A stretch of DNA of 63,631 nt, counting the filler, from Craspedostauros australis (lineage: Eukaryota), in assembly GCA_030167865.1 (NCBI GenBank). It is 8 parts of 8 records of this genome, joined end to end, with 100 filler letters (N's around TTAATTAATTAA, not from the genome) between each part and the next. Parts side by side here need not be neighbours in the genome. Positions count along the whole stretch, not along the records: positions 35,034 to 39,344 come from JALAGF010000239.1; 7 more parts are not named here. One strand, written 5' to 3'. The notes beneath the pieces were generated by a model. That model ran no database searches. It was not told the DNA's origin and saw only the letters and a program-made list of their open reading frames with translations. Numbering within the stretch: the stretch's first letter is position 1; each line of letters opens with the position of its first letter. Shown piece after piece: positions 5,561 to 60,619 of the stretch. The position numbers were made by a program, and so were the translations under genes.

Positions 5561-5660
5561 NNNNNNNNNNNNNNNNNNNNNNNNNNNNNNNNNNNNNNNN
5601 NNNNTTAATTAATTAANNNNNNNNNNNNNNNNNNNNNNNNNNNNNNNNNNNNNNNNNNNN
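5561..5660. other. Artificial scaffold linker (44N-TTAATTAATTAA-44N); also at 9948-10047, 34934-35033, 39345-39444, 56776-56875, 58650-58749, 60520-60619
   Basis: Seven identical 100-nt spacers carrying stop codons in all six frames. Confidence 0.97.
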
Positions 5661-9947: not shown

Positions 9948-10192
9948 NNNNNNNNNNNNNNNNNNNNNNNNNNNNNNNNNNNNNNNNNNNNTTAATTAAT
10001 TAANNNNNNNNNNNNNNNNNNNNNNNNNNNNNNNNNNNNNNNNNNNNCGTACCAAACGACTGAGACCTTCGGAAGCCAATCCGTGACTGATCACCTCACG
10101 ATAAATACGTGAGAACAGCATAGAACCTTCTACCAACAACAACGGGTTTTGTGCTGTTGGACCCACGTGACTGCTTTGCGTACATAGATTAC

Positions 10193-11248: not shown

Positions 11249-13537
11249 ATGAAGGGATTGGAAAGCATCGCGATGGCTGTTGCTCATCTGGAACATGGCA
11301 AAGGACCAAACAAAACCTCTGCCACAAACAAGGCTGGGAAGGATGCCGATGCGCCTCAAAGCATGGGTCAGACAGCGAACACGATCACGAATACCATCAC
11401 GAATACGATCGCAAGGATGGCCGCGAACCCAACACCCACACAGGTACGATCATCGCCAGCCGCAGCGCAAGCACAAGCAGCATCAGGAGTGGCAGCTGCC
11501 GCTGGTCGACATGCGCATGATGCCAGCGCACTGTTCAAGATCAGAAGCGGAAACGCAGGAGACATGCAGATCCCACTCGCGTCTTCACCCATGTCAAAAC
11601 GAAGCGTCGATGCTCGCGTGGCTGCGGGGGCTCCCATTCCCACAAGAAGGGACTTCGCCAGCAACGCTGCACGACTGGTATCAGCGGATTCCCTGCCGTC
11701 GGACGACAATGATGTGGACGATGGCAACATGCACCGACTGTCCGTCCCAGCTGCTGCGACGATGAACATCCCATCATCGGCCGGATTCCATAGATCCATC
11801 TCGCCCAGCGAGCAGCTGAGCATCAACCACGCTGCAGCAACGGCCGCTGCCGCCGCAGCCAGCCTCCAACACCACAACAACCACCACCTCCATCAACGCC
11901 ACCACAGCATGGCATCCGCCTACCTCGGCGCCCTCGGCCACACCCCAAGCGCATCCTTCTGGTCGACGGCCATGCAGCTCCGAGAGAGCGCCGCCGCTGC
12001 GGCCATCGCCAGAGGAGCGGCCGCCAGCCCTGCCGCCATGCACGCCCATCAGCAGCGCTCCGGATCGCCAGCCAACGCATTCGCAGCTGTTGCTGCCACA
12101 GGCACCGTGAGTGCCGGCATCCCCGTCCACTCTGAGCTTCGCGATCGAAGCCACGGCTCCACCTCGGGCAGTTCCTCTCAAGACCTCAGCAGACACGCGC
12201 CCGTTCCTGCGCCGTGCCCATCCTCTTCGCCGTCGCGGCCGCCAGCAGCGGCAACTGCGGCAGCCACGAACGCGGCGCCTGTCCCCATCGTCCCCAAGGC
12301 CTACTCCTCGATCGAGGACACGGAGGAGCTGGCCCGAACCGTGCCACCGCCTCCATCCCCATCCACCGTCATCACCAAGGTGCTCGAGAACGACGTCCTG
12401 TGTGGCCGCGGTGGTGAGACCAATCACCACCCTGGCAACGTCAAGTACCGCAACCTCGTCAAGTGCTACCAACCGCTGTACATCGTCTCCAAGCGCAGGG
12501 ACAAGCCAAGGATCGCCCAGAAGATTGTCCTCACGATCAGGAAGAACGGCGGCCGCTTCCTCAAGAAGGACAGCGCTACCAAGTCCTGGAGGGACGTTGG
12601 GAACACCAAGGCACGTGAGAAGACTTCGCAAGCGCTTCGCGAAGGTGCGCCAGAGCTTCGCAATGTCGGCAAGTCCGAGAGACGGTCGTCGACGTGCTCC
12701 GGTCCTGCCCAAAACGCCAAACCCAACGCCCATGCTGCGGCGGTTGCGGCTTCCGGTACTGGCGCTGGAAACTCTGGAATCGATACCGGCAGCGCCCACA
12801 GCAGCACAAGCGCCATTAGTGATGCGGCTGCCATGTCGGCTCCGCATCGACCACATAGCTCCATGCAGGAACAGCGTGCACCAATGCACGCTCAGATGCA
12901 CCTCAACATGCAGCAGCAACAACACCAACATCACCATTCCCTGGCCAACACGGCTGCCATCGCTCAGCTGGCAAGCCTCGGGCAGCTTCAACATGCTGCT
13001 GGCCTTGCGCCAGGAACTGCCAGCAGTCTTCTCGCAACCATCATCCATCACCAACAACAGCAGCAGCAGCAACACCATGCTGCGGCACCTCACGCAGCGC
13101 ACCTGTACTCTGCGCTGGCGAGAAGGATGAGTGGCTTCGCCGAGGCCCAGCCCTCCGTAACGGTCGTGAATAGCTCTCATGAAGAGATGCTCCATCGCGC
13201 CGCCAAACGCCACAGGCCAAATCCAACGCAGTCTCAAGCTCAAGCTGGCCGACACGCACAAGTCCCAGCACCAGCTCCAACGATCGCGTCTCCTGCCTCT
13301 GTCCCAAGCAGCGCCGCCACGGCCATCCCATCGCACGTTGGCTCCACAGGGAAGCCATCGCCGGTCTCTCCAACGTCAAGCTACGTTGCAGGTCCACTAT
13401 CGGATGACGGAGACAGCACATCCACCACCCAATCCGCAACGAATTCACCACGATCATCGTCATCATCATCCCCCAGGGGGCGAGGCCCTCGCCTCAAGCG
13501 ACTCAAGCGCCGACTGATAGAACAGTCGGAAGCCTAA
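11249..13537 (+). CDS. DUF6824-domain protein (putative nuclear regulator) with Ala/His/Gln-rich low-complexity flanks
   Basis: ENDVLCGRGGETNHHPGNVKYR...GGRFLKKD...W...AREKTSQALRE, plus a basic C-terminal RGPRLKRLKRR; 762 aa. Confidence 0.9.
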   Translation: MKGLESIAMAVAHLEHGKGPNKTSATNKAGKDADAPQSMGQTANTITNTITNTIARMAANPTPTQVRSSPAAAQAQAASGVAAAAGRHAHDASALFKIRSGNAGDMQIPLASSPMSKRSVDARVAAGAPIPTRRDFASNAARLVSADSLPSDDNDVDDGNMHRLSVPAAATMNIPSSAGFHRSISPSEQLSINHAAATAAAAAASLQHHNNHHLHQRHHSMASAYLGALGHTPSASFWSTAMQLRESAAAAAIARGAAASPAAMHAHQQRSGSPANAFAAVAATGTVSAGIPVHSELRDRSHGSTSGSSSQDLSRHAPVPAPCPSSSPSRPPAAATAAATNAAPVPIVPKAYSSIEDTEELARTVPPPPSPSTVITKVLENDVLCGRGGETNHHPGNVKYRNLVKCYQPLYIVSKRRDKPRIAQKIVLTIRKNGGRFLKKDSATKSWRDVGNTKAREKTSQALREGAPELRNVGKSERRSSTCSGPAQNAKPNAHAAAVAASGTGAGNSGIDTGSAHSSTSAISDAAAMSAPHRPHSSMQEQRAPMHAQMHLNMQQQQHQHHHSLANTAAIAQLASLGQLQHAAGLAPGTASSLLATIIHHQQQQQQQHHAAAPHAAHLYSALARRMSGFAEAQPSVTVVNSSHEEMLHRAAKRHRPNPTQSQAQAGRHAQVPAPAPTIASPASVPSSAATAIPSHVGSTGKPSPVSPTSSYVAGPLSDDGDSTSTTQSATNSPRSSSSSSPRGRGPRLKRLKRRLIEQSEA

Positions 13538-30894: not shown

Positions 30895-33579
30895 TCATTC
30901 GGGCTTGCGGCGCTTCCTCTGGGGTTGGTTCGAACGGTTCATCTCCAAGTGCGACACGATCTTGTGATGTCCTTTCTCCTTTGCGAGATCGAATGGCGTC
31001 TTCCCGCTGTTGTTCTTAATCCTGAAGGCCATTTCAGCAACCGCATCACACATGAATAACTTCAACTTGGCCAACTCACCATCCTTGCACACTACATGCA
31101 ACACAGTATCTCCCTGGTTGTTTTGGATTGTGACATCGTACCCTTCTTCTTTGAGCATCCGCTCCATCTCATGGACGCCTCCCTTGCTGCACGCACAATG
31201 CAATGGCGTGTCTCCCATTTCGTTTTGAACATCAGCCACACACAAGGCTGATTTCACCAAACGATCGATCTCGTCCCCTTCGGCGATTTTGGTAGCTTCG
31301 CCTAATATCCTGGTTGACACGACTTTGTTGCGAAGCTGATCGTAGATCCGCGTCAGCTTGCTTGTGTGGTCCATGGAGAAGAATCCTCCATGCTTGCATG
31401 TTAGATGATACAAGGTATCGCCACACTTATTCTGCAGGTTGACATCCAAGGTGTCTCGAATTAAATAATGAAGGAACAATTCATTGTACGGCAAGAATCT
31501 CCGCAAAGCCAAATGCATTGGCGTGTCTCCACGGTCATCTTGAATCCCCACAACAGCTTGGTCATGTGCGATGCATTTGTCGAGCACTCTCGTGAACAGA
31601 TGATCCTTGTCGCCTGAGCATGCGCCGTGAAGTGCCGTGCTACCATTCCGGTCTTGAAGTGTGACGTCCACTCTGGATCCCTTGCGTGGTGCGAGCAACC
31701 AATTCGCAGTCTCCATGCAAGGTCCGTCACCATCTTGTGGTCCACAAGCTAGATGGAGCAGCGTGGACCCGTCCTCGTCCTGAAGATTGACATCGATTGG
31801 GAAATTCCGTTGATCCGCCAGGCGCAAGTAGCTGGGAAGACAGGGGTCTTGTTGCGTGTCCCTATCATGCTTCGCTGCGATATGGAAGGCGGTGTGGCCA
31901 TGCTGATTCTGGATGCGAAGGTCCAAATCTGCTTTCCTCGACTCCATGATACATAACACCATTTTGTGTGCCCGCCTTTGGCACGCGTGATGGAGTGGTG
32001 TGTTGCCTTGCTTGTTCTGGATGTTGAATGCAAGACCAATCTCCTCGGCGTGGATCAAAGATTGAACAACCTGGAGGTTTCCCCAGTTGCAGGCAAGATG
32101 GAATGGCGTATTGCCGTCCATGTTCTGCGCATTGACATCGACCTTGACGGAGCCTCCTCCAATCAGATCTTCAACGTTCCTCTTCCGGCCATGCATGCAC
32201 GCGTAGTGAAGAGGTGTGTTGCCCCTCATGTCTGGTATGGCACTGACGTTGGTCGCCGGATTCAGCGCAACCAAATAATTCATCACATCGTTGGCCGGAT
32301 TCGTAGCGGCCAGATGAATAGGCGCCATTCCAGCCTTGTTAGCCACGTTTATGTCAGTGTTGAACCGACTGGACTTCACCAGGTACTCGACTATATCTCG
32401 CGACCCGGACCAGCAAGCGTGATGAAAGGCCGTGCATCCATCGTCATCTGGAGCATTGACATTCATGTTGGCTTCATCCATCTCGAGGAGGTATTCAACG
32501 ATGTCTTGGTGTCCACGTCCACACGAAAGACGGAGCAAGGCGACCGCATCGTTGCTTTGAATGCCGTAATCAGGATCGTCCCGACTCCATCGAACCAGAA
32601 GCTTCACAACCTCGCTGTTTTCGCTTTGGCAAGCAAAGTGGAATGGTGTTTCACCTTTCTCGTTGCGGCTGGTTAGATCAGCGTTGAGTTCGTCGGACTC
32701 GAGGAACAGACAGACCAAGTCAATGCACCCGCTCTTGCAGGCGAGGTGAAATGAAGTGTCACCGTTTGCGCCAGCCACCTCCGCGAGCGTTGCAAGTGCG
32801 CCGTTTTGGAGCAAGTACTCAATCACTTCAACCAGTCCATTCTCGCAGGCCTTGTGAAATACCGTGTAGCCGCATTTTCCTTTGGCATTCATGTCAACAT
32901 CGATCATGCCGCATTCCAAAGCTTTCTTGACGACATCGGCATGCTTGTTTGCGCAAGCTGTCAGCAATGGCGGATCAAAAACGTCGTGTTGATTTACATC
33001 GATTTCTTCAGCAAAATGGTCGATGATGCGACAAGCCACAGCGCTGTCTTTGCGGGCGCATGCGAGGCCGAACGGAGTGACAGTAGCCTCGTTCGCCGTG
33101 TTGATATCGATGTTTATGTTTTGCGCTTGCACTAACTGATCGATGATCTCGACAGAACCTGCTTCGCAAGCGTGGGCGAAAGGTGTGTACCCATCGCGGT
33201 CATGCATGCGCATGCATATTCCGGCTTGTCTCGATCTCAGCAAAAGCTCAACCACCATCTCGTGGTCGTTCTTGCAAGCAAGATGCAGCGGGGTCCGATT
33301 CTTCCTGTCTTGCAAAGTCATGTCAAAGCCTTCGCTGAAATGAATCTCTTCGTCGTTGCTGCCTCGGTTAATGCCATGAACCAGTCTTGCGAGCGTTCTG
33401 AAAATCTCGAAGAGCTCATCGTGATCGCCCTCCGCGCTTACTCGATGGATCGGAGTTGCATCACAATCGTCTTGTTCGTCGAGGCTGGTCTTCAGATCGC
33501 CATACAGGAACATGCAATCTATCTGATTAGTGGGTATTGTGTGAGGCAGATACACTCTTTCGGGTGGGTTGGATGCCAT
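30895..33579 (-). CDS. Ankyrin-repeat protein
   Basis: Many G-x-TP-[LF]-H-x-AC repeats along ~890 aa and a C-terminal basic RKRRK. First ATG at 33579. Confidence 0.93.
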   Translation of the reverse strand: MASNPPERVYLPHTIPTNQIDCMFLYGDLKTSLDEQDDCDATPIHRVSAEGDHDELFEIFRTLARLVHGINRGSNDEEIHFSEGFDMTLQDRKNRTPLHLACKNDHEMVVELLLRSRQAGICMRMHDRDGYTPFAHACEAGSVEIIDQLVQAQNINIDINTANEATVTPFGLACARKDSAVACRIIDHFAEEIDVNQHDVFDPPLLTACANKHADVVKKALECGMIDVDMNAKGKCGYTVFHKACENGLVEVIEYLLQNGALATLAEVAGANGDTSFHLACKSGCIDLVCLFLESDELNADLTSRNEKGETPFHFACQSENSEVVKLLVRWSRDDPDYGIQSNDAVALLRLSCGRGHQDIVEYLLEMDEANMNVNAPDDDGCTAFHHACWSGSRDIVEYLVKSSRFNTDINVANKAGMAPIHLAATNPANDVMNYLVALNPATNVSAIPDMRGNTPLHYACMHGRKRNVEDLIGGGSVKVDVNAQNMDGNTPFHLACNWGNLQVVQSLIHAEEIGLAFNIQNKQGNTPLHHACQRRAHKMVLCIMESRKADLDLRIQNQHGHTAFHIAAKHDRDTQQDPCLPSYLRLADQRNFPIDVNLQDEDGSTLLHLACGPQDGDGPCMETANWLLAPRKGSRVDVTLQDRNGSTALHGACSGDKDHLFTRVLDKCIAHDQAVVGIQDDRGDTPMHLALRRFLPYNELFLHYLIRDTLDVNLQNKCGDTLYHLTCKHGGFFSMDHTSKLTRIYDQLRNKVVSTRILGEATKIAEGDEIDRLVKSALCVADVQNEMGDTPLHCACSKGGVHEMERMLKEEGYDVTIQNNQGDTVLHVVCKDGELAKLKLFMCDAVAEMAFRIKNNSGKTPFDLAKEKGHHKIVSHLEMNRSNQPQRKRRKPE

Positions 33580-34797
33580 GGCTGAATGCGGCAGCAATCA
33601 TGGGGTGAAGTCGACGGACGTCGGAACGGGCAAGGAGCGAGTGAGTTACTCTGCTGGAATCATAGTGTCGTACCATATGGGTATGCGCAACTCTGCTACG
33701 TCATGGTGTGATGGCAATGATCACGATGCGCTCTGCGCCAAGATCTATTGCATAGAGGTGCTTGGGTGCGAGCAACATGATCAACGCCACTCTGATGTCA
33801 TCACGTTGTTGTGCACGGCGCATTGACGCATCTGGCACTGCTGGATCGCCATGAGCAAACAAGAGTGCAGCGAGCGTCCCATCGCTTGTCGTCTCTCTCT
33901 CGACAGGTAACCCAGACGGCAGGACTCACCGAGATGCTTTCGTGATGTCGATGAGGAAGGAAGGTGAACTTGTGTCTGCTTTAGCCTTGCGTGCTGGTGC
34001 AGGAAATGTTCTTCGCGAGAGGAGCAATGCTGTGTTTGTCTTTTTGGATGGATTTGAATTGTGATGTTAAGGTGCGTCTGGCTTGTTTGTGCGCGCTGTT
34101 GTGTGTGGTTGTGCGCACTCGAAGGTCGCCAGAAGCTCGTTGTCATGTGAGCACGCGTTTCACCCAATGCCATGCGCAACTATGATTCCCGCATTGGCTC
34201 ATTCCCGAGTATCTTTTGCTCCACACGAGGAGTAGTCGAATTAATCGATCGTGACAACAATTCGTTGGATTCCGAGAATTTGGCGCGTTTCGCCGAACCG
34301 CGACAAACGAATCCAAGGATACATGAGAACTTGGCGTTCCTGGCATCAAAGAAAACCTCACCCGTTCCACATGTGTGGGGAGGGGGACACCAGTGCGGGT
34401 CGACTCTCTTGTGCGCAAAGGGATGTGTCACAAGCATCGTTGGGTGGAGGGGCGTCAGTTGATCACAAGTGCTGCATCCGACTCATACTACCTCCAGGTC
34501 GCAGTTGATGCACTCACGATAACACTAGTTGTGGAGTTTTGGCCCCTTGTTGTCACTGGTTTGCTTGCTTTTGGGAGAAACGGCGATTGGATANTTANAG
34601 CTATTNNGTGTTTGCTCTCGCTGATCCGTCTTCTACGTCACAGGGAACGTATTCCACGTCATGANAAACGAGTCACAACAGAGGAAGAGACATCGTGTGA
34701 CTCTTCCTCCGCAAGACAAGATGATGACTGCGCGCGGCGACAACAGAATGTGCCAGGCCAGGACAGCCAACAACACTCCACGTTGACCAGTCTCACA

Positions 34798-34919
34798 ATG
34801 GAAACCAGCAACATCCAATCGTCTCGGAATACAACGAAGCGCATTGGCAATCTGTACGACGCAGACGACAGTGCTTCGCCAATCACCACAACATCGTCTT
34901 CACCTCGGCTGCCAATCCT
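34798..34919 (+). CDS. Possible first exon of a gene cut by the gap (METSNIQSSRN...)
   Basis: ATG in an ACAATG context and a GTGAAT donor-like site at 34920. No recognisable domain. Confidence 0.25.
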
Positions 34920-35034
34920 GTGAATGATGCATGNNNNNNNNNNNNNNNNNNNNNNNNNNNNNNNNNNNNNNNNNNNNTTAATTAATTAANNNNNNNNNNN
35001 NNNNNNNNNNNNNNNNNNNNNNNNNNNNNNNNNG

Positions 35035-38000
35035 GCGGAGAACGTCGTCGGAGTCAGCTACAACCCTGGCTTCCATCTCTCAACCATCCGCGAAGGTGAA
35101 GATCTCCAGCCGTTTGTTGCTATCGCCCAGCGCAGCAATCTGCACAGCTCCATCGATATCATCATCGTGAACCCGGACACTCGCGTGCAATGCCCAGACA
35201 ACGTCACTGGGGAGATCTGGGTGGCGGGAGCGTCCGTTGCCGCTGGATACTACAATCAGCCACAGCTCAGCAAGGAGACCTTCCAAGCCACGCTGCGAGT
35301 GGAGGGTGATTCATCGTCCGATGCCGATGCCAGTGCCGATGGTAAGATGTACTTGCGCACAGGTGACTACGGATTCTATCAAGACGACTACCTCTACATC
35401 TGCGGCCGCAAGAAGGATATCATCATCGTCAACGGTGTCAACTACTATCCCCAAGACATCGAGCACGCCGTCGAGGAGGCATCATCCGCTGTCCGTCCAG
35501 GTTGCGTGGCCGCCTTCTCGTCCAACGATTCGGGCGACGATGGACAGCTGGAGATTGTCTTCGAGATCCGAGCTCGCCATGTGAAGGATGCCGAGACGGT
35601 CTGCCAACAAGTCAGAAGGAACGTCATCTCACAGATCGGATTGACACCGGCAACAGTCGCAGCCGTGGAAGAGCGATCCATCTCCAAAACGACGAGCGGA
35701 AAGATCCAGAGACGCCAAAATCGCCAGCGTCTCCATGAAGGAACGCAGAAGACGGTGCTGGATGTCATCGGAAAATCGAACTTCTTCAGTTCGCACGGCA
35801 GCAATCTTGCGGGTCAATCCAAGCGACTCTCGATGAGAATGTCCATCATCGAGAACGTCAACATCGAAGAGATGGACTTCTATGACCTTGTGAAGAGCTG
35901 TACAGGAACCGAAGTCAGCCCTGATGATGAGTGGAAGGATGTTGGATTGTCTTCCATGATGGAGCTGGAGCTCCGCCAGTCCCTTTCTGAACGATACAAC
36001 ACGACCCTTCCCGCAAACATCATCCAACTCTTTCCGAGAGTGATGGATCTCAAGACTTATCTCGAGGCATCAAAGGGAGAGCCCCTACCAACCAACCTCC
36101 CAACCCTCAAGAGGATCCTCTCCATCCCGAATGAGAAGTTTCTGTCCCAATCGACCGTCGCCATCATCCAGGCCATCGGTGCGCTCGTCGTGGTCCTCAT
36201 CTTCTCGCTCCCCATCGTCCCAGCGTACGAAGTTGGAAAAGCCATCGCCGGCTCCGACGTCCTCTCCGGTCATGAATGGGTGCTGCTACCCTTGATCGTC
36301 CCAGTCTGGGCCATTGCGCTCACCTTCGTGATCATCCTCTCGAAGTGGATTGTCATTGGCAGATACACAGAAGGGTATGCCAATCAGACCAGCATCTATT
36401 TCATCAGGTGGTGGTTCGTCGATCGGTTGGTCGAGATGTGGGAACGATTCGTCGGCCGCATCATCGGCAACACACTTTTGATGACGTTGTTCTACTACCT
36501 GATGGGTGCCGACATCCATCCCTCGGCCAGCGTGAACGCGACCGTCCGGGAGTTTGACCTGGTCAAGGTTGATGCTGGCGCCACGGTCAACACAAACATC
36601 CGATGCCGCATGTTCGGCCCGTGGAAGGATGAGCAGGAAGGCCCCAGCGTGAGATTTCGCAAGATTCAGGTTGGACCCAACGCTACGGTCGACGGCGCCT
36701 TGCTTCCTGGAGCCAGCGTCGGCTCTGGCTGCCACGTCCAGCGCATATCCGTGCTGGTGGAAGGTGCTCAAGCACCACCAAACACCTCGATCAGAGGCAA
36801 CCCAGCATTTGTCGATGCTCCTTCGTCGACTCTCAAGGGCGATGACGATGCATCCGCAACTGGAACAGCGAGTGGAGACACGGCATCCGACACATCCACC
36901 AACCCATTGATCGTGCTGGGAATGATGAAGCTTGTTTGGCTCGCCATCGAGCTGTACTTCGCATTCGCATGCTTCGTGGCTGCTGATCAGTTGGTCGGAG
37001 ATGGGCTTCCAGATTGGAGGTACTCCCCCATCGTCTACTGGATCGCCCTCTTTGGCCTCACGTCCGCCTGCTTCGTGATCACCAGCATCATCCTCAAGTG
37101 GGTGCTAATCGGCAAGAAGCGATCCGGTCCAGCGCGGACAGGAACATTCTCCAAGTTCGCTGACTGGGCTTGCGACTTCCACTTCTTCGTCGGAACAACA
37201 CTGATCCTCGACTTGACATTATACTCCCAACTTTGGAACCTCGTCCTCATGGCACACGGCATGGACATCGATATGAGATCGAGGGCAGTGACAATGCTGT
37301 TCCCCCCATCCAAGCTGGACCTCGTCACGGTCAAGCGATCCTTCATCTCCTATTGTGACCTCGATGTCGAAGAAGATGGCCAATACAAGGCGATCACCAT
37401 CGAAGACAGCACCATCGGCACGGTACTGGCTTGCGGCCCTGGTGTGACCATCCGCAGAGCCATGGTGACTCCCTGCACTCACGTCACCAGCGATATGATC
37501 AACACCGAGCATCATCCAAGCAACGTGCCTCTCTCCACATCCCAGTTCTTCATGCTCATGATCAACAACACCCTGCTGCATATCATCATCCTTGCGGCAG
37601 TGGCGGCCAGCCTCATCCCATCATATGAGCTGTTGGCTATCATGCTCAAGCCAGACACGACAACGGCGCTGGTTCCGATTGCCATTGCGGCATCCGCCAT
37701 CATCCAGACCCTCGTCTGGCTCGTTCTCTATCGAGTGATCAACACCATCACTCTCTTGGGAAGTGTTGCACGCGGAGGACCATGGTGTATTTCATTGTAT
37801 ATGGTCTACTTGTCCTACAGCAATTTCTTTCAGTCGTGGTCCTTCGAGGCAGTTGTTTGGGGCACACCGATGATGAACGCTGTGTTGCGATTCCGAGGAG
37901 CGACCATCCAGGGAAAGATGCTGTTCTTTGGATTCCGCATCTATGACGCTCCGCTGCTCACATTTGCTGACAGGACAGTGATCGATGACTCCATCATCAA

Positions 38001-38232
38001 CGGTCATGTCGGTGTGTTTTCCACGTTGTCGGTGGGAACATCCTACATCGATGGTCTGATGCACCAGATGTCGTTTGCGATGATGAGGAAGGGCTCAGCA
38101 ACGAAGGGCTCAGCAGCGAAGGGCACTGCCTTGGTGGAGCACGCTCCATGGAAGATGGTCAGCGACATGCAAACATCAGACACGAAGGTATCAGTGTCGA
38201 TATCTGATGGATCAGGAGATGAGGAAGTATGA
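35035..38232 (+). CDS. NRPS-like membrane synthetase: FAAL-type adenylation domain (5' half in gap), carrier domain, and three Pls/PosA-like TM plus beta-helix modules
   Basis: Adenylation motifs AENVV, GEIWVAGASVAAGYY, YLRTGDYG, GRKKDIIIVNGVNYYPQDIE and KTTSGKIQRR. Carrier motif DVGLSSMM. KWIVIGRY and KWVLIGKK follow TM pairs, with hexapeptide-like strings (IQVGPNATV...ASVGSGCHV). Confidence 0.9.
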   Translation, partial: AENVVGVSYNPGFHLSTIREGEDLQPFVAIAQRSNLHSSIDIIIVNPDTRVQCPDNVTGEIWVAGASVAAGYYNQPQLSKETFQATLRVEGDSSSDADASADGKMYLRTGDYGFYQDDYLYICGRKKDIIIVNGVNYYPQDIEHAVEEASSAVRPGCVAAFSSNDSGDDGQLEIVFEIRARHVKDAETVCQQVRRNVISQIGLTPATVAAVEERSISKTTSGKIQRRQNRQRLHEGTQKTVLDVIGKSNFFSSHGSNLAGQSKRLSMRMSIIENVNIEEMDFYDLVKSCTGTEVSPDDEWKDVGLSSMMELELRQSLSERYNTTLPANIIQLFPRVMDLKTYLEASKGEPLPTNLPTLKRILSIPNEKFLSQSTVAIIQAIGALVVVLIFSLPIVPAYEVGKAIAGSDVLSGHEWVLLPLIVPVWAIALTFVIILSKWIVIGRYTEGYANQTSIYFIRWWFVDRLVEMWERFVGRIIGNTLLMTLFYYLMGADIHPSASVNATVREFDLVKVDAGATVNTNIRCRMFGPWKDEQEGPSVRFRKIQVGPNATVDGALLPGASVGSGCHVQRISVLVEGAQAPPNTSIRGNPAFVDAPSSTLKGDDDASATGTASGDTASDTSTNPLIVLGMMKLVWLAIELYFAFACFVAADQLVGDGLPDWRYSPIVYWIALFGLTSACFVITSIILKWVLIGKKRSGPARTGTFSKFADWACDFHFFVGTTLILDLTLYSQLWNLVLMAHGMDIDMRSRAVTMLFPPSKLDLVTVKRSFISYCDLDVEEDGQYKAITIEDSTIGTVLACGPGVTIRRAMVTPCTHVTSDMINTEHHPSNVPLSTSQFFMLMINNTLLHIIILAAVAASLIPSYELLAIMLKPDTTTALVPIAIAASAIIQTLVWLVLYRVINTITLLGSVARGGPWCISLYMVYLSYSNFFQSWSFEAVVWGTPMMNAVLRFRGATIQGKMLFFGFRIYDAPLLTFADRTVIDDSIINGHVGVFSTLSVGTSYIDGLMHQMSFAMMRKGSATKGSAAKGTALVEHAPWKMVSDMQTSDTKVSVSISDGSGDEEV

Positions 38233-39444
38233 GGAAGCACAGAGAAGAGTGGCTCTAAGGAAGTATCGATCTGCGCGGCACTAGGTAGCATTAGAAAATG
38301 AATGAGCACGGATTGTCGACTCATCCTTCCCCATATTATGTAACCACGGACTCGGCGCAATGCAATATAATGCAATCCAACATGATGCAATACAATACTC
38401 GTATGGATACTCTTCGAGTATGATACTGTTCTAGTAGACCCTGGCTCTTGCCTACCCATCCACTCCAACCTACGGATGCAATCTGTGCCACGCACCAAGT
38501 GCATCCGAATGAAGCTGTGCAATTATTATTGTCGGTTATTAGAGCTAAACTAGAATAGCATTTAGGTCAGGGAGGAATTTCCCAGCACTCAAGACTCGCC
38601 TTCCCACGACATGGTCCGAACCACGTCTCGGGATATCCATAAAGAAATTCGTCCACGATAAAAGTCCAAAATTGTCTCAGGAGACCAAGCGGATTCGAGG
38701 GGTGCCAAAAATGGTCTCCTCAGACCAAAATCAAGCAACGTGACGTTTTATCGCGATGGCATTTTCTTCGACCACCTCGACTAAAACTATTTGTTCGCGC
38801 TCACTTTTTCCCCCCCTCATATCGTTTTTTCCGATTTCTCACAATGTCCTGGCATGCCCTCCTGTTTACTATGGCTCAATGCTTCTCCTGGATGCATTGA
38901 GCCACTTGCATCTCATCACAGTTCTTCGTATACATACATTCATTGCATGCTTGTCCACGTCCTCCACGCTCTTCACAGGACATGATCGTTCCGCAGCGTT
39001 CTTCCTCTTGTATCACAATGATTTGTGGCCGCGCCTCTTCACAGGAACAATACACCACCCCATATTTGATGGACGTTTGTGTGTTATTACTTTGCTATAT
39101 GTTACATCTTGACCCATTCCCATGGCTGTACTTTCCTTGTTGAGCAGCTGCTCACGTTCGCGGTCGTTGTGGAGTTGTCTCCGAGCGCGTCCACCGTCTC
39201 TGTGGAGCTGGTGCATCGGTGTTTTGCACCACCCCTACTTGGTACATCACCTTCATCTATCTTCCCTTGCCACCCACTCCAACACAGTGGAGGGCCTGCT
39301 TCATGAAGGGAGCTTCATTTTTGTGGCCCAGCTTTTCGAGCTTTNNNNNNNNNNNNNNNNNNNNNNNNNNNNNNNNNNNNNNNNNNNNTTAATTAATTAA
39401 NNNNNNNNNNNNNNNNNNNNNNNNNNNNNNNNNNNNNNNNNNNN

Positions 39445-40414
39445 TGCCTGATACGCTGGTGGCCATCACCACGTTGACCCTGTGCTTGTGGTTGAGATGC
39501 ATGGCGGCACGGTCGCACAAGTAGAACAACAGGGTCGATGAAAACCACTGGAAGGTCTGACTTCGGCTGCCTGGGTGTCGGCGGTGCTTCGCGTCGAAGG
39601 TATGTGCGATCGTGATGAAGTACATGACGAAGACGAGGTGGTGGATGGCATAGAACAGCTCGTACGGGATGGCGTATCGGAAGTAGGATGTTACGCCGAT
39701 GATCATCAAGCAGGCGAGGATGGCGTATCCCGTGATCGCGATCTCGGTTGTGAACTTGTCGCAGAATCCCTCCTCGCCGTCNNNNNNNNNNNNNNNNNNN
39801 NNNNNNNNNNNNNNNNNNNNNNNNNNNNNNNNNNNNNNNNNNNNNNNNNNNNNNNNNNNNNNNNNNNNNNNNNNNNNNNNNNNNNNNNNNNNNNNNNNNN
39901 NNNNNNNNNNNNNGGAGAGGGATGCGATGCTCAGCCGCGACATTGTCAGCGGGAGCAAGGCCATCTGGAACAAGATGGCATGTGAGCATCCAAACTCCAC
40001 TGGTGGCACCAGGCGCTTCCACCAATACCAGCTGGCCCCGTCCGGGGTTTTGTTCTCTTCGAGCTGGAATTTTTGCAACGCAAAGTGGGTGAACACCACC
40101 ATGGTGGTCATGAAGTGGATGAGGAAGAAGACCAAGAGCTTGCGCTCGGCGTAGAGGTAGATCACAGAGCGGTAAATTGTGGCTGGTTCGAGGAGTTGCT
40201 TGGCCTTGCGGAAGATGTGACGTTGCTCATCTTGTGCTGAGACGGTTCCTGACGATTGTGCTTCATCTTGAAACTTGCGGCACGGATTGCTTGCCGTGCC
40301 TGCCACATCGTGACAGCTGCTGCTGGTCTCACCTTCCTTGCTCTCGTTGGCCATGGCTACCTCTTCGTTGTTGTGAGAAGAGCCGAGCTCCAGATTTTGT
40401 TCTGCCTTGTCCAT
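39445..40414 (-). CDS. NADPH oxidase/ferric reductase-family flavocytochrome, partial (internal 132-N gap, 3' end in gap)
   Basis: TM region with PYELFYAIHHL...ITIAH (heme-ligand His pattern) and FYLCDR. Short N-terminus with no EF-hands visible. Confidence 0.85.
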
Positions 40415-43821: not shown

Positions 43822-44848
43822 TCTCCTCGCAAAACGCGTCTCGCTCTCTGTAGACAAACAAGGAAGATGGTCGCTCTCTAGAGATGGTATCACACTTTGT
43901 TGTGCATGCACCGCTGTTTGCAGTGTCCATCATGCAGGCTATTCGTATTATAATATGGTGTTTGAGTCCAATTGCCTCTTCCTCAAAATGTGAGACTGAC
44001 TTCGATATCTAGCTTGGAGTTCTAGTATATCCGTTGGACGAGCATGCTGACATTTTGTGTTTACAGGACCATGCATGCCGGCGTAACGTCTCACATGTTG
44101 CAACAAGCAATCGTGCAGACACGTGACATGAAATCGCCATCTGGACATGCCCAAAAACAATTGACTCTTCTCCAAAACGCTGCCGGTTCCTGTTCGTGTT
44201 GATGAATCATGTGACGAAACCGAGAAAGCTCGTGTCGAGGCGTGATATTTCCTTCCACCCACGATTGCGACGAAGAACATGAACAAATGGAACCATGTGA
44301 ACACACACAAAGACCTTCATGGACTGGACCCAACCATGAGCCACCAACAGCACCACTTCACATCACTGCTCCACACACTTACACCCCACAACGACGAATG
44401 CGACAATACTTGACATCACGGCAACACATCACGGCAACACATCACAGGAGAACCAGAGACCACGAGAGACCTGCTCCAACTCTGCATTGGGAGGTCCATT
44501 CTGAAACGCTCGTAGTCTTGATGGTCGTGGCTTGAAAGCGCTTCCGTCCACATCAGCAACCTCAGGTTCTCCTTCTCCCGGTTCCACGAACATTGCCTCT
44601 GCCACTACCAACACTCATTACTACACCCTTGTGGTCAGATCAAGGTGGTGGCCATTGATCAGGCTATTGTATCGCATTCCACGCTCATGCCCAAGTCCAA
44701 GTCCATCCTCATGATCACATTTGTGCGATAGTTCGAGTCTCCATCGATCCATCCATCGACGCAGGACGCGGAGTGAGAAAGCAAGTGTATGCCATCATCG
44801 CTGACGACACCAGCAACACCACCACCACCAACAACAACAACAGCAACA

Positions 44849-47800
44849 ATGCAGATAGGAGAGGCACAAGGAACGAGGAGAATGATGACGCGGCAACCCA
44901 TGAGAGGCCTGCTGGTGCTGCTGATTGCACTGTGCTGCCTTGGCGCATCAGCCGTAGCGGAAGCAACCTCCAGCACGGATGCAGACGCTGCCAAGGCAAA
45001 ATGGGATGAGCTCGGTGCAGGCATCTATCACGTCCAGTTCGACAGTTACTTGGATGCGACGCAACGGACGGCAGACGCCACGATCCAGCGCAGCAACTTC
45101 GGCATTCACGTGCGTGATGACCAAATCCTGGCAGAGTTCTGGGAGGTCGCACCGGCCGATCAAGCGCAGGTCATGACGATCGATGCTCTCTTCGATGTCA
45201 TCTCCAACGGCACCGTCGCGGCGGTGTTCGATGCCACGCACGGTTACCCGCTCAGCATCACGCAAGCCAGCGCCACGGACCCCTCGCAGACCGTCTTGGA
45301 CGTGCAGATACAGCGCGTGCTCCTACTTGACACCGTCATCTTCAATGAAGTCACCACGAACCTGCTGCGGTGGCAGACCTCCGGTCCATCCGATTACACC
45401 ATGGGGTATCGGAATCATCATCAGGCTGCTATCATTCCGCTTCCGCCGCAAACCATTTCAGACGACCATGGTTCGGTGCAACTCACAGTTTCGGTGGCAA
45501 ACGGCTTTCTCATCAAATCCATCACGGTGACCACCCAATCGGACGCCTCCGGCGGCTCGTCAACGGTCGATGTTGATGTCACGGCAACCACGAGAGATTA
45601 CGTTCAAACGGTCGATGCCTTGTTTCGGGAGCTGGAGTTTCGCATCCTTGGACCGGACCTCGCTGCGTTATCGGATGCGACGATGGAGCCTGTCTTCTTC
45701 CCCACCCTCGTCAATGTCGTCTACGACCAACAATTGGGCTATCCAAACAGCATTGAGATCGTGGCGACGACGTCATCGTCAGTTGTGTCTTTGAGAGCGC
45801 CGCAAACGCGGCTCTTCAACGTTTCCCTTCCCTTCCTGGAACCAGATCGACTTGAGGAACTCAGCGATGCACGAAAGCGTTGGGACGACGCCAAAGACAA
45901 GCTCGGATTGTATGGCACCCTGGTGCGATCGATCACCGTCCCGCAGGATCCCCCCAACCTCCCCATCGACGTGCCGAGATTTTATTCGACGCGCGCGATC
46001 CAGGTGGAGAATGACGAGATTTATTCGGTGCAGTCCGTCTTGGGCGTCGAAGTCCTCACGAATTTGGATGCTCGTCCGGCCAACACCATTTCATGGCGCG
46101 CCATCATTCCACTGGAGGATCTCACCGACGTCGACGATCCCACCGTCACAAGCAACATCCAGCATGGGAACGATTTTGAGCACATTGATGGTGACGACAC
46201 GGACAAGAAGTACTTCACCGTCGACCAGCTCTTTGGCATTCTGGGGTCTGCCCTACGAGAACTCAACAGCAACGAGCAGGAAAACGATGGTGATGATGAT
46301 GGCGGCAGAATATTGGCAGTCTGGGCCACCTACGATGCAGCGAACTTTGGCGTCCCGCGCGCCATCCAGATTCAATATCAAGCACCGAAAACCAAGAATG
46401 GCGATGACGGAGAGGTCCGAGTGTTTATATACAATGTCAGGGCACTGTTGCCGTACTCACTAGCTATGCTGCAGATCGAAGAACAGAAACGGCGATGGGC
46501 GAACTTGGATATGGTGGACTACAGCTTCATCTTCCAGCTGACCTGCTTTTGTCTCGACGAAGTCGTGCAACCCCGACTGGTGGAGATTCGCAACAGTACC
46601 GACATCCAATCCGTCCAGACCTTGCCCAACGCAAGGGGTGTCGGAGAGAGGGATGCCATCAACGATATGCTCCCTGTCATTCGTCCCATGACCGAAATGT
46701 TCGAGTTCCTCAAGCAGGCGCTGGAAGATTCTCCACAAGCCTTCTCTTTCATCTTCGATCCCATCTACGGACACCCAACGTCCATCCATATCAATCCGGC
46801 TCTCGGCATCTCGGACAATTCCTACGTTGCTGAGATCTCCTCCGTCACGCCGATGCGGCAGTCGGAGCTTCAAACCAACCTCACGAACGCCATACAAACA
46901 TGGGAGTCGTACGACATGCAGAATTACAGCTTCGCATTCGTCGACCGGTGTTTCTGTGAGGTGATCGTCCACCAATGGATCGCAGTGCGGGATGGGAAGC
47001 TTCTAAATGTTGATATCGACAACATGGAGACAATAGCTCCTGACGCTGTCGTCGACGTCGGTATCGACGACGCCATGACGATACCGGATCTGTTCGACCT
47101 CATCCAAGACAGCATCAACACCTTGGCGGATAGGTTGGAGGTGGAATTCGATGCCAAGTACGGGCATCCCACAAGGATCTTCGTCCAGCAAGACGAGGAT
47201 CTCGCCGACGCATTTGCTTCTATCTTCGTCTCAATGTTGACGCCGTATTCGGCGTTGTTGCCGGAGGTTGCACAACAGAAGCTCTTGTGGGAGCAACAAC
47301 AGATAACATCGTACACCTACAGCTTCACCAGAAGTTGCGAATGCTTGACGGATGGTGTGCCGGTCGAAGTGGTGGTCGAGGATGGTGTGATCCAATCATG
47401 GACGTTGATCTCACCACAAAACAAATCAGTCACCGGCGCAACGCGATCGGGAGCATCGCCCTGCTCGAGTGCGTTCACCGTGTCGGATTTGCTCGCTATC
47501 ATCGAGGACGCCATCCAGCAAGAGGCACCTAGCATCCAAGTGGATTACGATTTCACAGGACGACCGCTCTCCATCTTCATTGATTACTCACGCATGATTG
47601 CGGACGATGAGTTCATCGTGTCCATGGACTACATGGGCCCGCCGTCAGAGTCGCCGTCATCTGCGCCAACCGTAGCGCCGACATACTTCAGACCATCTTT
47701 GGCACCGACGTCTTCGAATGAAACCCAGGAAATAAAATCGGTAGACGTCGAGACGGCAGCACCAGCCACGACTCCCAGATCCGCATCCGACAGGTCCGGC

Positions 47801-47887
47801 AGTCGGCCGCAGTCGTCGTGGTTTGGGGCATGGTTTGTTGTGGGAGGTGTCTCCGCTTTGATGATGGTGTTGGAGATGATACAGTAG
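44849..47887 (+). CDS. Secreted or membrane-anchored protein with six DUF6174-like repeats
   Basis: Signal peptide (MRGLLVLLIALCCLGASAVA), six W..Y..(CxC)..T...L[FL]..[FY]D...G.P repeats, a Ser/Pro/Thr stalk and a hydrophobic C-terminus. Start may be 44849, 44882 or later. Confidence 0.85.
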   Translation: MQIGEAQGTRRMMTRQPMRGLLVLLIALCCLGASAVAEATSSTDADAAKAKWDELGAGIYHVQFDSYLDATQRTADATIQRSNFGIHVRDDQILAEFWEVAPADQAQVMTIDALFDVISNGTVAAVFDATHGYPLSITQASATDPSQTVLDVQIQRVLLLDTVIFNEVTTNLLRWQTSGPSDYTMGYRNHHQAAIIPLPPQTISDDHGSVQLTVSVANGFLIKSITVTTQSDASGGSSTVDVDVTATTRDYVQTVDALFRELEFRILGPDLAALSDATMEPVFFPTLVNVVYDQQLGYPNSIEIVATTSSSVVSLRAPQTRLFNVSLPFLEPDRLEELSDARKRWDDAKDKLGLYGTLVRSITVPQDPPNLPIDVPRFYSTRAIQVENDEIYSVQSVLGVEVLTNLDARPANTISWRAIIPLEDLTDVDDPTVTSNIQHGNDFEHIDGDDTDKKYFTVDQLFGILGSALRELNSNEQENDGDDDGGRILAVWATYDAANFGVPRAIQIQYQAPKTKNGDDGEVRVFIYNVRALLPYSLAMLQIEEQKRRWANLDMVDYSFIFQLTCFCLDEVVQPRLVEIRNSTDIQSVQTLPNARGVGERDAINDMLPVIRPMTEMFEFLKQALEDSPQAFSFIFDPIYGHPTSIHINPALGISDNSYVAEISSVTPMRQSELQTNLTNAIQTWESYDMQNYSFAFVDRCFCEVIVHQWIAVRDGKLLNVDIDNMETIAPDAVVDVGIDDAMTIPDLFDLIQDSINTLADRLEVEFDAKYGHPTRIFVQQDEDLADAFASIFVSMLTPYSALLPEVAQQKLLWEQQQITSYTYSFTRSCECLTDGVPVEVVVEDGVIQSWTLISPQNKSVTGATRSGASPCSSAFTVSDLLAIIEDAIQQEAPSIQVDYDFTGRPLSIFIDYSRMIADDEFIVSMDYMGPPSESPSSAPTVAPTYFRPSLAPTSSNETQEIKSVDVETAAPATTPRSASDRSGSRPQSSWFGAWFVVGGVSALMMVLEMIQ

Positions 47888-55599: not shown

Positions 55600-56875
55600 G
55601 TTGTTGATGTTGTTGTTTGTAGTGGTGGTTTTGTGGTGGTGCGGAGCGAGTGGGTGTTGCTGCTGATTGTTTGTGTTTGTTTTGTTGATCGGTTGGTGAT
55701 TTGAATTGTCAGGTTTTCGTTTTTATGAGTGGATGAGGAGGCGAAGCGGTCCAGAGAGCTACAGACAAACAGAGCAAGACTCACAAATCAGCAACACAAC
55801 AGGAGGCCAAGACAGAGGAGAAACAAACACACATGCCAGTAACGGGAAAGAGTACGCCGCTAGTACGCACATACGCGCATAGCGACAGCACCATGGAGAC
55901 AGGGGTGGAGCCAATGCACATACACCTAGTCCGAGTGCGCGCGTTCTTACCCAACGACGCGAACAAGACGCGACAACCAAGACAGAACAAGACAGGCTAA
56001 ATAGAGACAAACATAAACCATTCGCTCGAATAAGTTTGCCAGACAGCGCCCAAACATACTGTGCGAATATTCATGTGCCCATTTCGAAACTGATTTGTCC
56101 TTGTTGACATTTCTGTCGTTCCCCTAAGCCTTCTGTATGTTTAGGATGTCCGTTCACTCACCGTTCACGCATAAATGTATCCCGCATTGGCAATAAAATC
56201 AAGCAACTGAAGCACATTCGATTTGTCAGTTCGGCGTTGTTGCGTCGACATGGCGCGACAAATTGATCCGCTCGAAGTGGAGCAATGTGTCGCGCTTGTG
56301 GATGGGGAGAATGAAAGTGCTTTCGCAAGATTCAACAGGACAAATCGTCAACAGGTGTCAACGCAGAATGCTGCACTGGATGCTCATTTGTTGGCGCCTT
56401 TCTCATCCATCAACAAAACGCATTGGTGACCAACGCTTCGGACCAAATGCACACCAGGCCGTTTGCCTGCGGACCATGTGTATCTACTTGAACCGCGGAC
56501 GCAAGAGCCGCCGACCAAGATGACGACTTTCGCAGCACCATGAGAAGCACGGATCATGCTCTCGGCATGCACTTTCATGCTTAGCTTGTGAACCTTGAAT
56601 GTTCCTGCACCATGCGCACCCTCGCTCGTCATCGTGAGCAGAGAGGAGAGAACTCGGAGTATTCACATCTGGACATGCGTGTGATGTCTGTTCATTAGAG
56701 GCCTATCGCATTTCACATTCACACCCCTGTGTTCATGTCACATGTGGCACTCACGTTCGGATTTCACATTGGTACNNNNNNNNNNNNNNNNNNNNNNNNN
56801 NNNNNNNNNNNNNNNNNNNTTAATTAATTAANNNNNNNNNNNNNNNNNNNNNNNNNNNNNNNNNNNNNNNNNNNN

Positions 56876-58649: not shown

Positions 58650-58749
58650 NNNNNNNNNNNNNNNNNNNNNNNNNNNNNNNNNNNNNNNNNNNNTTAATTA
58701 ATTAANNNNNNNNNNNNNNNNNNNNNNNNNNNNNNNNNNNNNNNNNNNN

Positions 58750-60519: not shown

Positions 60520-60619
60520 NNNNNNNNNNNNNNNNNNNNNNNNNNNNNNNNNNNNNNNNNNNNTTAATTAATTAANNNNNNNNNNNNNNNNNNNNNNNNN
60601 NNNNNNNNNNNNNNNNNNN

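Follow-up and report, generated by a model that had tools for sequence, protein, structure and literature searches.

What does a fatty acyl-AMP ligase (FAAL) do when it is joined, through a carrier domain, to the membrane part of a polymer-making synthetase? The question is raised by a gene found at 35035-38232 on the plus strand of a stretch of 63,631 nucleotides from Craspedostauros australis (GenBank assembly GCA_030167865.1); the whole of this stretch is hereafter called the window. The gene encodes a predicted FAAL-type adenylation (A) domain, a carrier domain and three transmembrane (TM) hairpins alternating with three modules of the left-handed beta-helix (LbH) type. We hold with high confidence both this architecture and the homology of the C-terminal part to the epsilon-poly-L-lysine and delta-poly-L-ornithine synthetases (Pls and PosA, respectively). 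The explanation favoured for the whole, which on balance we consider probable, is a FAAL-carrier-Pls-like membrane enzyme that would transfer an acyl chain to an acceptor.

From 35035 onward, 1065 codons can be read in one frame before a stop codon at 38230-38232, and the frame is still open at the 5' end of its contig. Directly upstream lies a block of 100 bases (34934-35033) made of N44, TTAATTAATTAA and N44, of which the window contains seven identical copies versus zero expected by chance. This block is an artificial joiner, bearing stops in all six frames and used to concatenate contigs, and no sequencing gap; closing the gap that the earlier note had placed at these positions is thus not meaningful. 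The joiner marks the 5' end of the contig of the gene (35034-39344, 4.3 kb), where the gene is truncated, and the DNA before 34934 therefore belongs to another contig and need not be adjacent to it. The stretch 34375-34923, considered as a possible 5' part of the gene, was ruled out, being on that other contig and having no similarity to AMP-binding domains. Isolated Ns in the last 350 bases of the same preceding contig (34594, 34598, 34606-34607 and 34665) suggest a low-quality contig end.

Searching the window by tblastn with five full-length relatives retrieved a single copy, with alignments starting at residues 352-497 of the relatives, and did not retrieve the N-terminal half of the gene. 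Since residue 1 of the protein is matched with residue 371 of P0002, a full-length relative, and with residue 430 of the closest relative, P0130, some 370-430 N-terminal residues are missing, among them the adenylation motifs A1-A4 and the larger part of the substrate pocket. Judged from these alignments, the sequence is the 3' three-quarters of a diatom gene, whose whole protein would measure ~1440-1500 amino acids (aa). The alignments to the relatives are colinear, so that the sequenced part has neither an intron nor a frame break.

The C-terminal half of the A domain, from core motif A5 ('..AE') onward, occupies 35035-35754, the segment that follows A5 being present at aa 3-58. This part contains GEIWVAGASVAAGY at aa 59-72 (35209-35250), YLRTGD, GRKKDIIIVNGVNYYPQDIE and KTTSGKIQR at aa 218-226 (35686-35712), with NYYPQDIE inside 35404-35463, so that all the motifs from which the earlier note had read a FAAL-type adenylation domain could be located. 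In Pfam, the tail of AMP-binding is matched at aa 40-73 and AMP-dom_DIP2-like at aa 127-229, with 31 bits (gathering threshold, GA, 27). The four best NCBIfam matches are all FAAL models, namely PRK12476 (158 bits, 2.6e-46), the FadD32 models (147-150 bits) and PRK05850 (132 bits), while generic acyl-CoA ligase models score at most 70 bits on the same part. The amino-acid adenylation model TIGR01733 reaches 57.7 bits on this partial domain against a cut-off of 317.4. The same order emerges from the complete A domain of P0002: its best match in the PDB is 7r7e (4.7e-85), followed by 3kxw, FadD23, FadD32, FadD28 and 3pbk, and the top 16 matches are all FAALs or FAAL-like loaders, with amino-acid A domains at ~1e-30 to 1e-31.

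By these comparisons, both of models and of structures, the A domain stands nearer to the FAALs than to acyl-CoA ligases or amino-acid A domains, in line with the FAAL-type loader first proposed for this gene. Known FAALs (FadD32, FadD28, FadD23, the Legionella and E. coli FAALs, and loading domains of polyketide synthases (PKS) and non-ribosomal peptide synthetases (NRPS)) are thus the best A-domain matches both in the window and in the full-length relatives, and the succession of adenylation and carrier domains recalls the loaders in which a FAAL is followed by an acyl carrier protein (ACP). The window protein differs from them in lying under all the curated cut-offs and in being fused to a Pls-like membrane domain, instead of feeding a PKS or NRPS; separate partners of the latter two kinds are those commonly supplied by FAALs, as stated in passages of two surveys (PMC8460268; PMC12820801). 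No condensation, thioesterase or reductase domain was found by Pfam in the sequenced protein, as anticipated for the first two.

The carrier domain (35908-36063) corresponds to Pfam PF00550 (PP-binding) at aa 292-343 and passes the threshold by a narrow margin (21.6 bits vs GA 20.8). The substitution of the usual GxDS by GLSS, already remarked upon, lies at aa 304-307 (35944-35955), and the predicted phosphopantetheine serine is Ser307 (35953-35955). This serine is kept without exception in the family members aligned (22 of 22), where the residue before it is S or T, not the usual D.

Downstream of the carrier, hydropathy gives six TM segments, which form three pairs with a soluble stretch of 130-175 aa after each pair. 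The first hairpin (36139-36354; TM1 at about aa 369-395 and TM2 at about aa 413-440, by hydropathy and model helices) ends in KWIVIGRY, where K437 and W438 are near-invariant, Pls/PosA included. It leads to soluble module C1 (36367-36894), in which two core helices (RWWFVDR...WE) precede a beta-helix, and which is supported by, among others, a TIGR02353 match over aa 403-745 and weak hexapeptide-transferase matches; its end is an acidic and Ser-rich linker of low confidence. The second hairpin (36904-37104; TM3 at about aa 624-650 and TM4 at about aa 663-690, by hydropathy and model) ends in KWVLIGKK with the near-invariant K688, and is followed by module C2 (37117-37539), the left-handed beta-helix that is best modelled and on which the structural fold matches fall. 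The third hairpin (37546-37749; TM5 at about aa 838-865 and TM6 at about aa 879-905, again by hydropathy and model) precedes module C3 (37762-38169), which contains the conserved His991 in INGH (37996-38007). An acidic C-terminal tail of low confidence, as given by the frame and the model, closes the protein together with the stop codon (38170-38232). The modules are related to one another, the hhalign probability being 98% between the first and the second (E 1.5e-13) and 97% between the first and the third (E 9.6e-11). The loops within the pairs are short and the stretches after TM2 and TM4 are rich in K and R (KWIVIGRY, KWVLIGKKRSG); by the positive-inside rule, this would place all three modules on the cytosolic side, together with the A and carrier domains.

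An AlphaFold2 model of aa 356-1065 (mean predicted local distance difference test score, pLDDT, 74.6; predicted template modelling score, pTM, 0.79) repeats three times the same order of elements, i.e., two long helices, two shorter helices and short strands. The published PosA model is described as having six bent TM helices and three five-turn left-handed beta-helices in approximate threefold symmetry (PMC10522769), and the order of helices and strands in the window model is that of this description. The best Foldseek matches of the model in the PDB are serine acetyltransferases (E 2.7e-4). VIA-align, on model residues ~328-486, retrieved GlmU (Z 9.1, root-mean-square deviation 2.3, 83 aligned residues), QdtC (Z 8.7) and further LbH N-acyltransferases; all these matches fall on C2, the only module well covered, and their Z scores are modestly above the background stated for the tool. 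By sequence, the C-terminal 686 aa gave three weak PDB matches only (E 0.2-0.68), and no solved Pls-type membrane domain was found in the PDB by sequence, Foldseek or VIA-align. Hexapep models match 4 of 11 family members, one member matching the LpxD and LpxA models as well.

In the model, then, the C-terminal domain carries a left-handed beta-helix acyltransferase fold, and the three units of TM pair and beta-helix-like module which the earlier note had described are recovered by hydropathy, by the repeats and by the modelled fold; so is its comparison with Pls, both in the succession of carrier and three TM-module units and in the predicted structure. As far as the model goes, the module fold is that of the trimeric hexapeptide acyltransferases, which include the acyl-ACP users LpxA and LpxD and the N-acyltransferases GlmU, QdtC, WlbB and AntD. 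These enzymes, however, are made of three soluble subunits, whereas the window protein would hold three beta-helices in one chain, interleaved with TM hairpins.

How close the domain is to Pls and PosA can be judged at three levels, namely the score against the family model, the alignment and the phylogeny. TIGR02353 is the sole NCBIfam match of the C-terminal region of the window protein, with 57.7-59.3 bits (E 6.9e-16) over aa 403-745 and profile positions 28-357 of 695. The same model matches 11 of 11 aligned family C-termini (best 1.3e-36), and its curated cut-off of 423.1 bits is reached neither by the window protein nor by any of the 11 members. A profile built from the C-termini of these 11 aligned members and searched against 1.84 billion representative proteins retrieved 2822 proteins at E<=1e-3 and 505 at E<=1e-30. 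Among the matches listed, five at ~1e-56 to 1e-65 (P0231, P0244, P0246, P0260 and P0261) are bona fide Pls/PosA, with 590-644 bits on TIGR02353 and with TIGR01733 passed; bona fide Pls/PosA members overall reach 530-661 bits on TIGR02353. Aligned by MAFFT with these five proteins, the family is colinear with them over the whole domain, and 18 near-invariant residues are common to both, including K437-W438, W460, G491, D508-L509, G588, P590, K688, G742, D762, G943, G955 and H991. The last of these is kept in 20 of 21 aligned sequences, the five bona fide Pls/PosA among them, and is the sole histidine common to both clades. The motifs RWWFVDR..WE and DWAxDYHF of the FAAL-type clade differ from their Pls/PosA counterparts.

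From these results, the last ~700 aa are best described as genuinely homologous to the Pls/PosA terminal domain, though divergent from it. The match to the Pls/TIGR02353 family that had been expected is in this way upheld as homology (matches in all the aligned members, a colinear alignment, an LbH model) and fails as membership, the cut-off being missed and the clade being separate. The resemblance to Pls and PosA extends to the plan of the whole protein, a single adenylation-carrier module followed by ~700 aa that comprise three TM pairs and three mutually similar modules, and to details such as the KW after TM2 and TM4, G491, D508-L509 and H991. The differences are that Pls and PosA have an amino-acid A domain and make a cationic polymer, whereas the window protein has a FAAL-type loader and its product is probably no cationic polymer. 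Moreover, its C-terminal domain belongs to a separate clade, so that the window protein fails three defining Pls/PosA tests, i.e., model cut-off, loader type and clade.

The phylogenetic separation was obtained with FastTree from 131 C-terminal domains over 571 columns, leaving out proteins and open reading frames (ORFs) with matches shorter than 400 profile positions. A branch with support 1.0 divides the tree into one side with the window protein, every one of the 63 FAAL-type tips and 37 tips that lack an A domain, and another with all 28 amino-acid-type tips and two others. The window protein thus stands in a separate C-terminal clade in which every member with an A domain has one of the FAAL type, many tips having none. 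Among the best 150 representatives of the family profile search, 67 have a FAAL-type A domain, 73 have no A domain (mostly fragments) and 10 have one of the amino-acid type, the latter beginning only at E 4.7e-71. AMP-binding is found by Pfam in 24 of 26 long matches, and for 20 proteins at E<=1e-70 the best NCBIfam match is of the FAAL type in 13, five are bona fide Pls/PosA and two have no match. Prokaryotes were scanned with two peptide patterns in one genome per species, which gave 216 pattern matches, 181 of them confirmed. The best 80 of these loci were analysed: 76 have an amino-acid-type A domain upstream, four have no A domain in the available DNA, and a FAAL-type partner was found in none of the 80. 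All 14 proteins scanned from prokaryotic loci pass both TIGR02353 and TIGR01733.

All named proteins in the FAAL-type clade come from eukaryotes that are distant from one another, among them diatoms, a pelagophyte, a choanoflagellate, Picozoa and a chlorarachniophyte. The diatom Seminavis robusta contributes many paralogues, which are 33-39% identical to the window protein and are labelled 'Putative fatty-acid--CoA ligase FadD21', 'MSMEG_5435' or 'D-alanine--D-alanyl carrier protein ligase'; other named members are several hypothetical proteins of Chrysophaeum taylorii and proteins of Salpingoeca kvevrii, Picozoa sp., Bigelowiella natans and Stygiella incarcerata, and a further one is an NCBI record named after FadD28. 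The nearest ESM Atlas cluster is called 'Uncharacterized protein (Fragment)' and is 94% eukaryotic, with Bacillariophyta as the most common group. In the tree, the window protein is sister to its closest relative, the metagenomic P0130, with which it has 42% identity across 1081 columns of their alignment (query residues 1-1038). P0130 and the homologues from Seminavis and Chrysophaeum taylorii have the same full architecture as the window protein, from which they differ in being full length and in bearing database names that cover the A domain only.

Variant forms also occur in the family. P0127 (2457 aa) has an alpha/beta-hydrolase after the Pls-like domain, P0145 (2742 aa) has two AMP-binding domains and an amine-oxidase-like domain of the flavin adenine dinucleotide (FAD) type before it, and P0248, from Stygiella incarcerata, is a form of 4380 aa; the extra domains of these three proteins could hint at the chemistry of substrate or product. 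In P0124, P0134, P0136 and P0149-P0152 (801-854 aa), the Pls-like domain starts from residue ~130-170 and no A domain was detected by phmmer; they are either 5'-truncated models on short contigs or stand-alone forms of carrier and membrane domain with a separate loader.

From these elements a mechanism can be proposed. The A domain would adenylate a fatty, or similar non-amino, carboxylic acid and load it on the phosphopantetheine of Ser307. The modules C1-C3 would pack as a pseudo-trimer, in the manner of the trimeric hexapeptide acyltransferases, and would take the acyl-S-carrier as donor. LpxA and LpxD use acyl-ACP as donor, and in both cases the donor would be a phosphopantetheine thioester. 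His991 in C3 is the candidate for the general base, and the acyl group would be passed once, at or through the membrane, to an acceptor with an amine or a hydroxyl. The six-helix bundle would anchor the enzyme at the membrane and might also pass the product into or across the bilayer. A single transfer is favoured over iteration because a second nucleophile is lacking in a plain fatty acyl chain, and we regard the chances of such a single transfer as evenly poised. In the same conditional sense, the eukaryotic family probably makes a lipid.

Several points weigh against this proposal. The curated FAAL cut-offs are far from being reached, with 158 vs 922 bits for the partial domain of the window protein and 308 vs 775 bits for the full-length P0002, which leaves room for a substrate that is not a plain fatty acid. 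The N-terminal half of the A domain, which bears the acyl pocket, lies outside the window, and the substrate class is read from the relatives and from the C-terminal subdomain. As regards the membrane part, the repeat signal between the second and third modules is weak (hhalign 16.6%), Pfam Hexapep stays under threshold in the window protein (best, LbH_EIF2B with 13.2 bits and E 0.09), and the pseudo-trimer packing follows the published model of PosA, not that of the window protein. The role of His991 is proposed from its conservation. Furthermore, the characterized members of the Pls/PosA family all polymerize, which makes the single transfer a guess, and no biochemical or expression evidence was found for any member of the family.

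The fact that every characterized protein with a C-terminal domain of this kind is a homopolymer synthetase, as reported in the account of PosA (PMC10522769), is also what gives weight to an iterative, Pls-like polymerase, in which the FAAL-type domain would load, as bifunctional monomer, an acid bearing an amino or hydroxy group in the omega or beta position, and the C-terminal domain would add it again and again to a free, growing chain, extruded through the membrane as a polyamide or polyester. The domain is indeed colinear with that of Pls/PosA and has near-invariant residues in common with it, His991 included, and FAAL-like loaders that score below the cut-offs may accept unusual acids. 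We nevertheless judge this reading rather unlikely: the clade of the C-terminal domain is separate from the polymerases, with the low TIGR02353 score given above, its motifs RWWFVDR..WE and DWAxDYHF are unlike those of Pls/PosA, and no result points to a monomer with a second nucleophile. Still more improbable seems a membrane domain that only anchors or regulates the FAAL-carrier loader, with the acyl chain being handed to a separate PKS, NRPS or acyltransferase. The usual supply of separate PKS and NRPS partners by FAALs, noted in parts of the literature (PMC8460268; PMC12820801), agrees with such a division of labour, as do the relatives with additional domains (the alpha/beta-hydrolase of P0127, the amine oxidase of P0145). 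Against it stand the requirement of the C-terminal domain for product formation in Pls, as reported in PMC10522769, the strong conservation of the domain across distant eukaryotes, including the residues common to Pls/PosA, and a fusion partner that tracks the C-terminal clade perfectly.

Two further readings find little room. A gene that ends at the border of a 4.3-kb contig might be a dead copy, a product of misassembly or contaminating DNA, without function in the organism, but the 1065 codons are open, every family-invariant residue is intact, the sequence is colinear with its relatives and shows no frame breaks, and the truncation is explained by the end of the contig. In addition, the closest relatives are eukaryotic, the named full-length matches are diatom proteins and the guanine plus cytosine (GC) content of the gene resembles that of the rest of the window, all of which makes this possibility very improbable. 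The least credible alternative is an ordinary, if divergent, Pls/PosA enzyme that activates a diamino acid and makes a cationic homo-poly(amino acid): it would account for the common plan of adenylation and carrier domains, six TM segments and three modules, but is contradicted by the TIGR01733 score, which remains at 57.7 bits (cut-off 317.4) where FAAL models reach up to 158 on the same partial domain, by the fit of full-length relatives to FAAL structures and by the position of all 11 members below the TIGR02353 cut-off and by the separate clade. The preferred explanation remains the FAAL-carrier-Pls-like enzyme with acyl transfer to an acceptor.

The other genes of the window are eukaryotic (ankyrin, SET, RRM and MFS). 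A pseudouridine synthase encoded in it has its best named matches in diatoms (Nitzschia, Epithemia, Attheya and Cyclostephanos), ahead of a pelagophyte and a brown alga, with at most 46% identity, which is consistent with an origin in a diatom that has no close relative sequenced, a diatom having been assumed from the start for this gene. Joiners lie at 5561-5660, 9948-10047, 34934-35033, 39345-39444, 56776-56875, 58650-58749 and 60520-60619; in the window at least eight contigs are strung together, and gene neighbourhood across the joiners means nothing. The contig preceding that of the gene encodes, at 30895-33597 on the minus strand, a 900-aa ankyrin-repeat protein (Ank_2, E 3.4e-92), and the following one begins within a gene with a ferric-reductase-like TM domain (39445-40414, minus strand; PF01794, E 4.8e-7), possibly of NADPH-oxidase or ferric-reductase type and interrupted by a run of 132 Ns at 39782-39913. 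Two large ORFs on the plus strand belong to families without assigned function, one with DUF6824 (11249-13537; E 9.3e-33) and one with three copies of DUF6174 (44789-47887; E 3.2e-70).

No published description of a FAAL, a carrier and a Pls-like domain in one protein was found in the literature searched. A 2026 survey of FAALs reports that diatoms are the richest in FAALs among eukaryotes, with 16 in Seminavis robusta, and describes FAAL-PKS proteins in Bacillariophyta (PMC12820801). Its text, as far as available, contains no mention of a Pls, hexapeptide or membrane domain in diatom FAALs, and the searchable text of its supplement contains neither TIGR02353 nor IPR012728 nor Seminavis, although its Tables S1 and S3 may still list such proteins. 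In the same way, the Pls-like fusion is absent from the eukaryotic FAAL architectures of supplementary file 4 of a 2021 eLife survey (PMC8460268). The family is, hence, already in the databases under names that refer to the A domain only, and a characterization of it was not found so far as the literature was searched. The results obtained here suggest that many of these FAALs of diatoms are attached to a Pls-like membrane domain.

What would follow for the biology of these organisms can be stated only in conditional terms. To our knowledge, the Pls-type synthetases described so far all come from bacteria and fungi and produce cationic poly(amino acid)s, and the working of their membrane domain is still unsolved. 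The clade described here, sister to Pls/PosA, couples the same membrane domain to a loader of the fatty-acid type, and with the family the mechanism of the Pls domain could be dissected on a second class of substrates, and a natural one. In the widest view, which we put forward as a speculation of low probability, these proteins would be membrane machines spread across the eukaryotes that use the Pls-type triple beta-helix and six-helix domain on fatty-type monomers and, in the boldest version, join omega-functionalized fatty acids iteratively or acylate polyamines repeatedly, extruding through the membrane a new class of lipid or polymer (polyester, polyamide or lipopolyamine). If this were true, benthic diatoms, in which the family is greatly expanded, could gain from it an adhesive, wall-associated or signalling material; and if the chemistry proposed above is right, a new class of lipids or lipopolymers in ecologically dominant algae would come within reach of direct tests.

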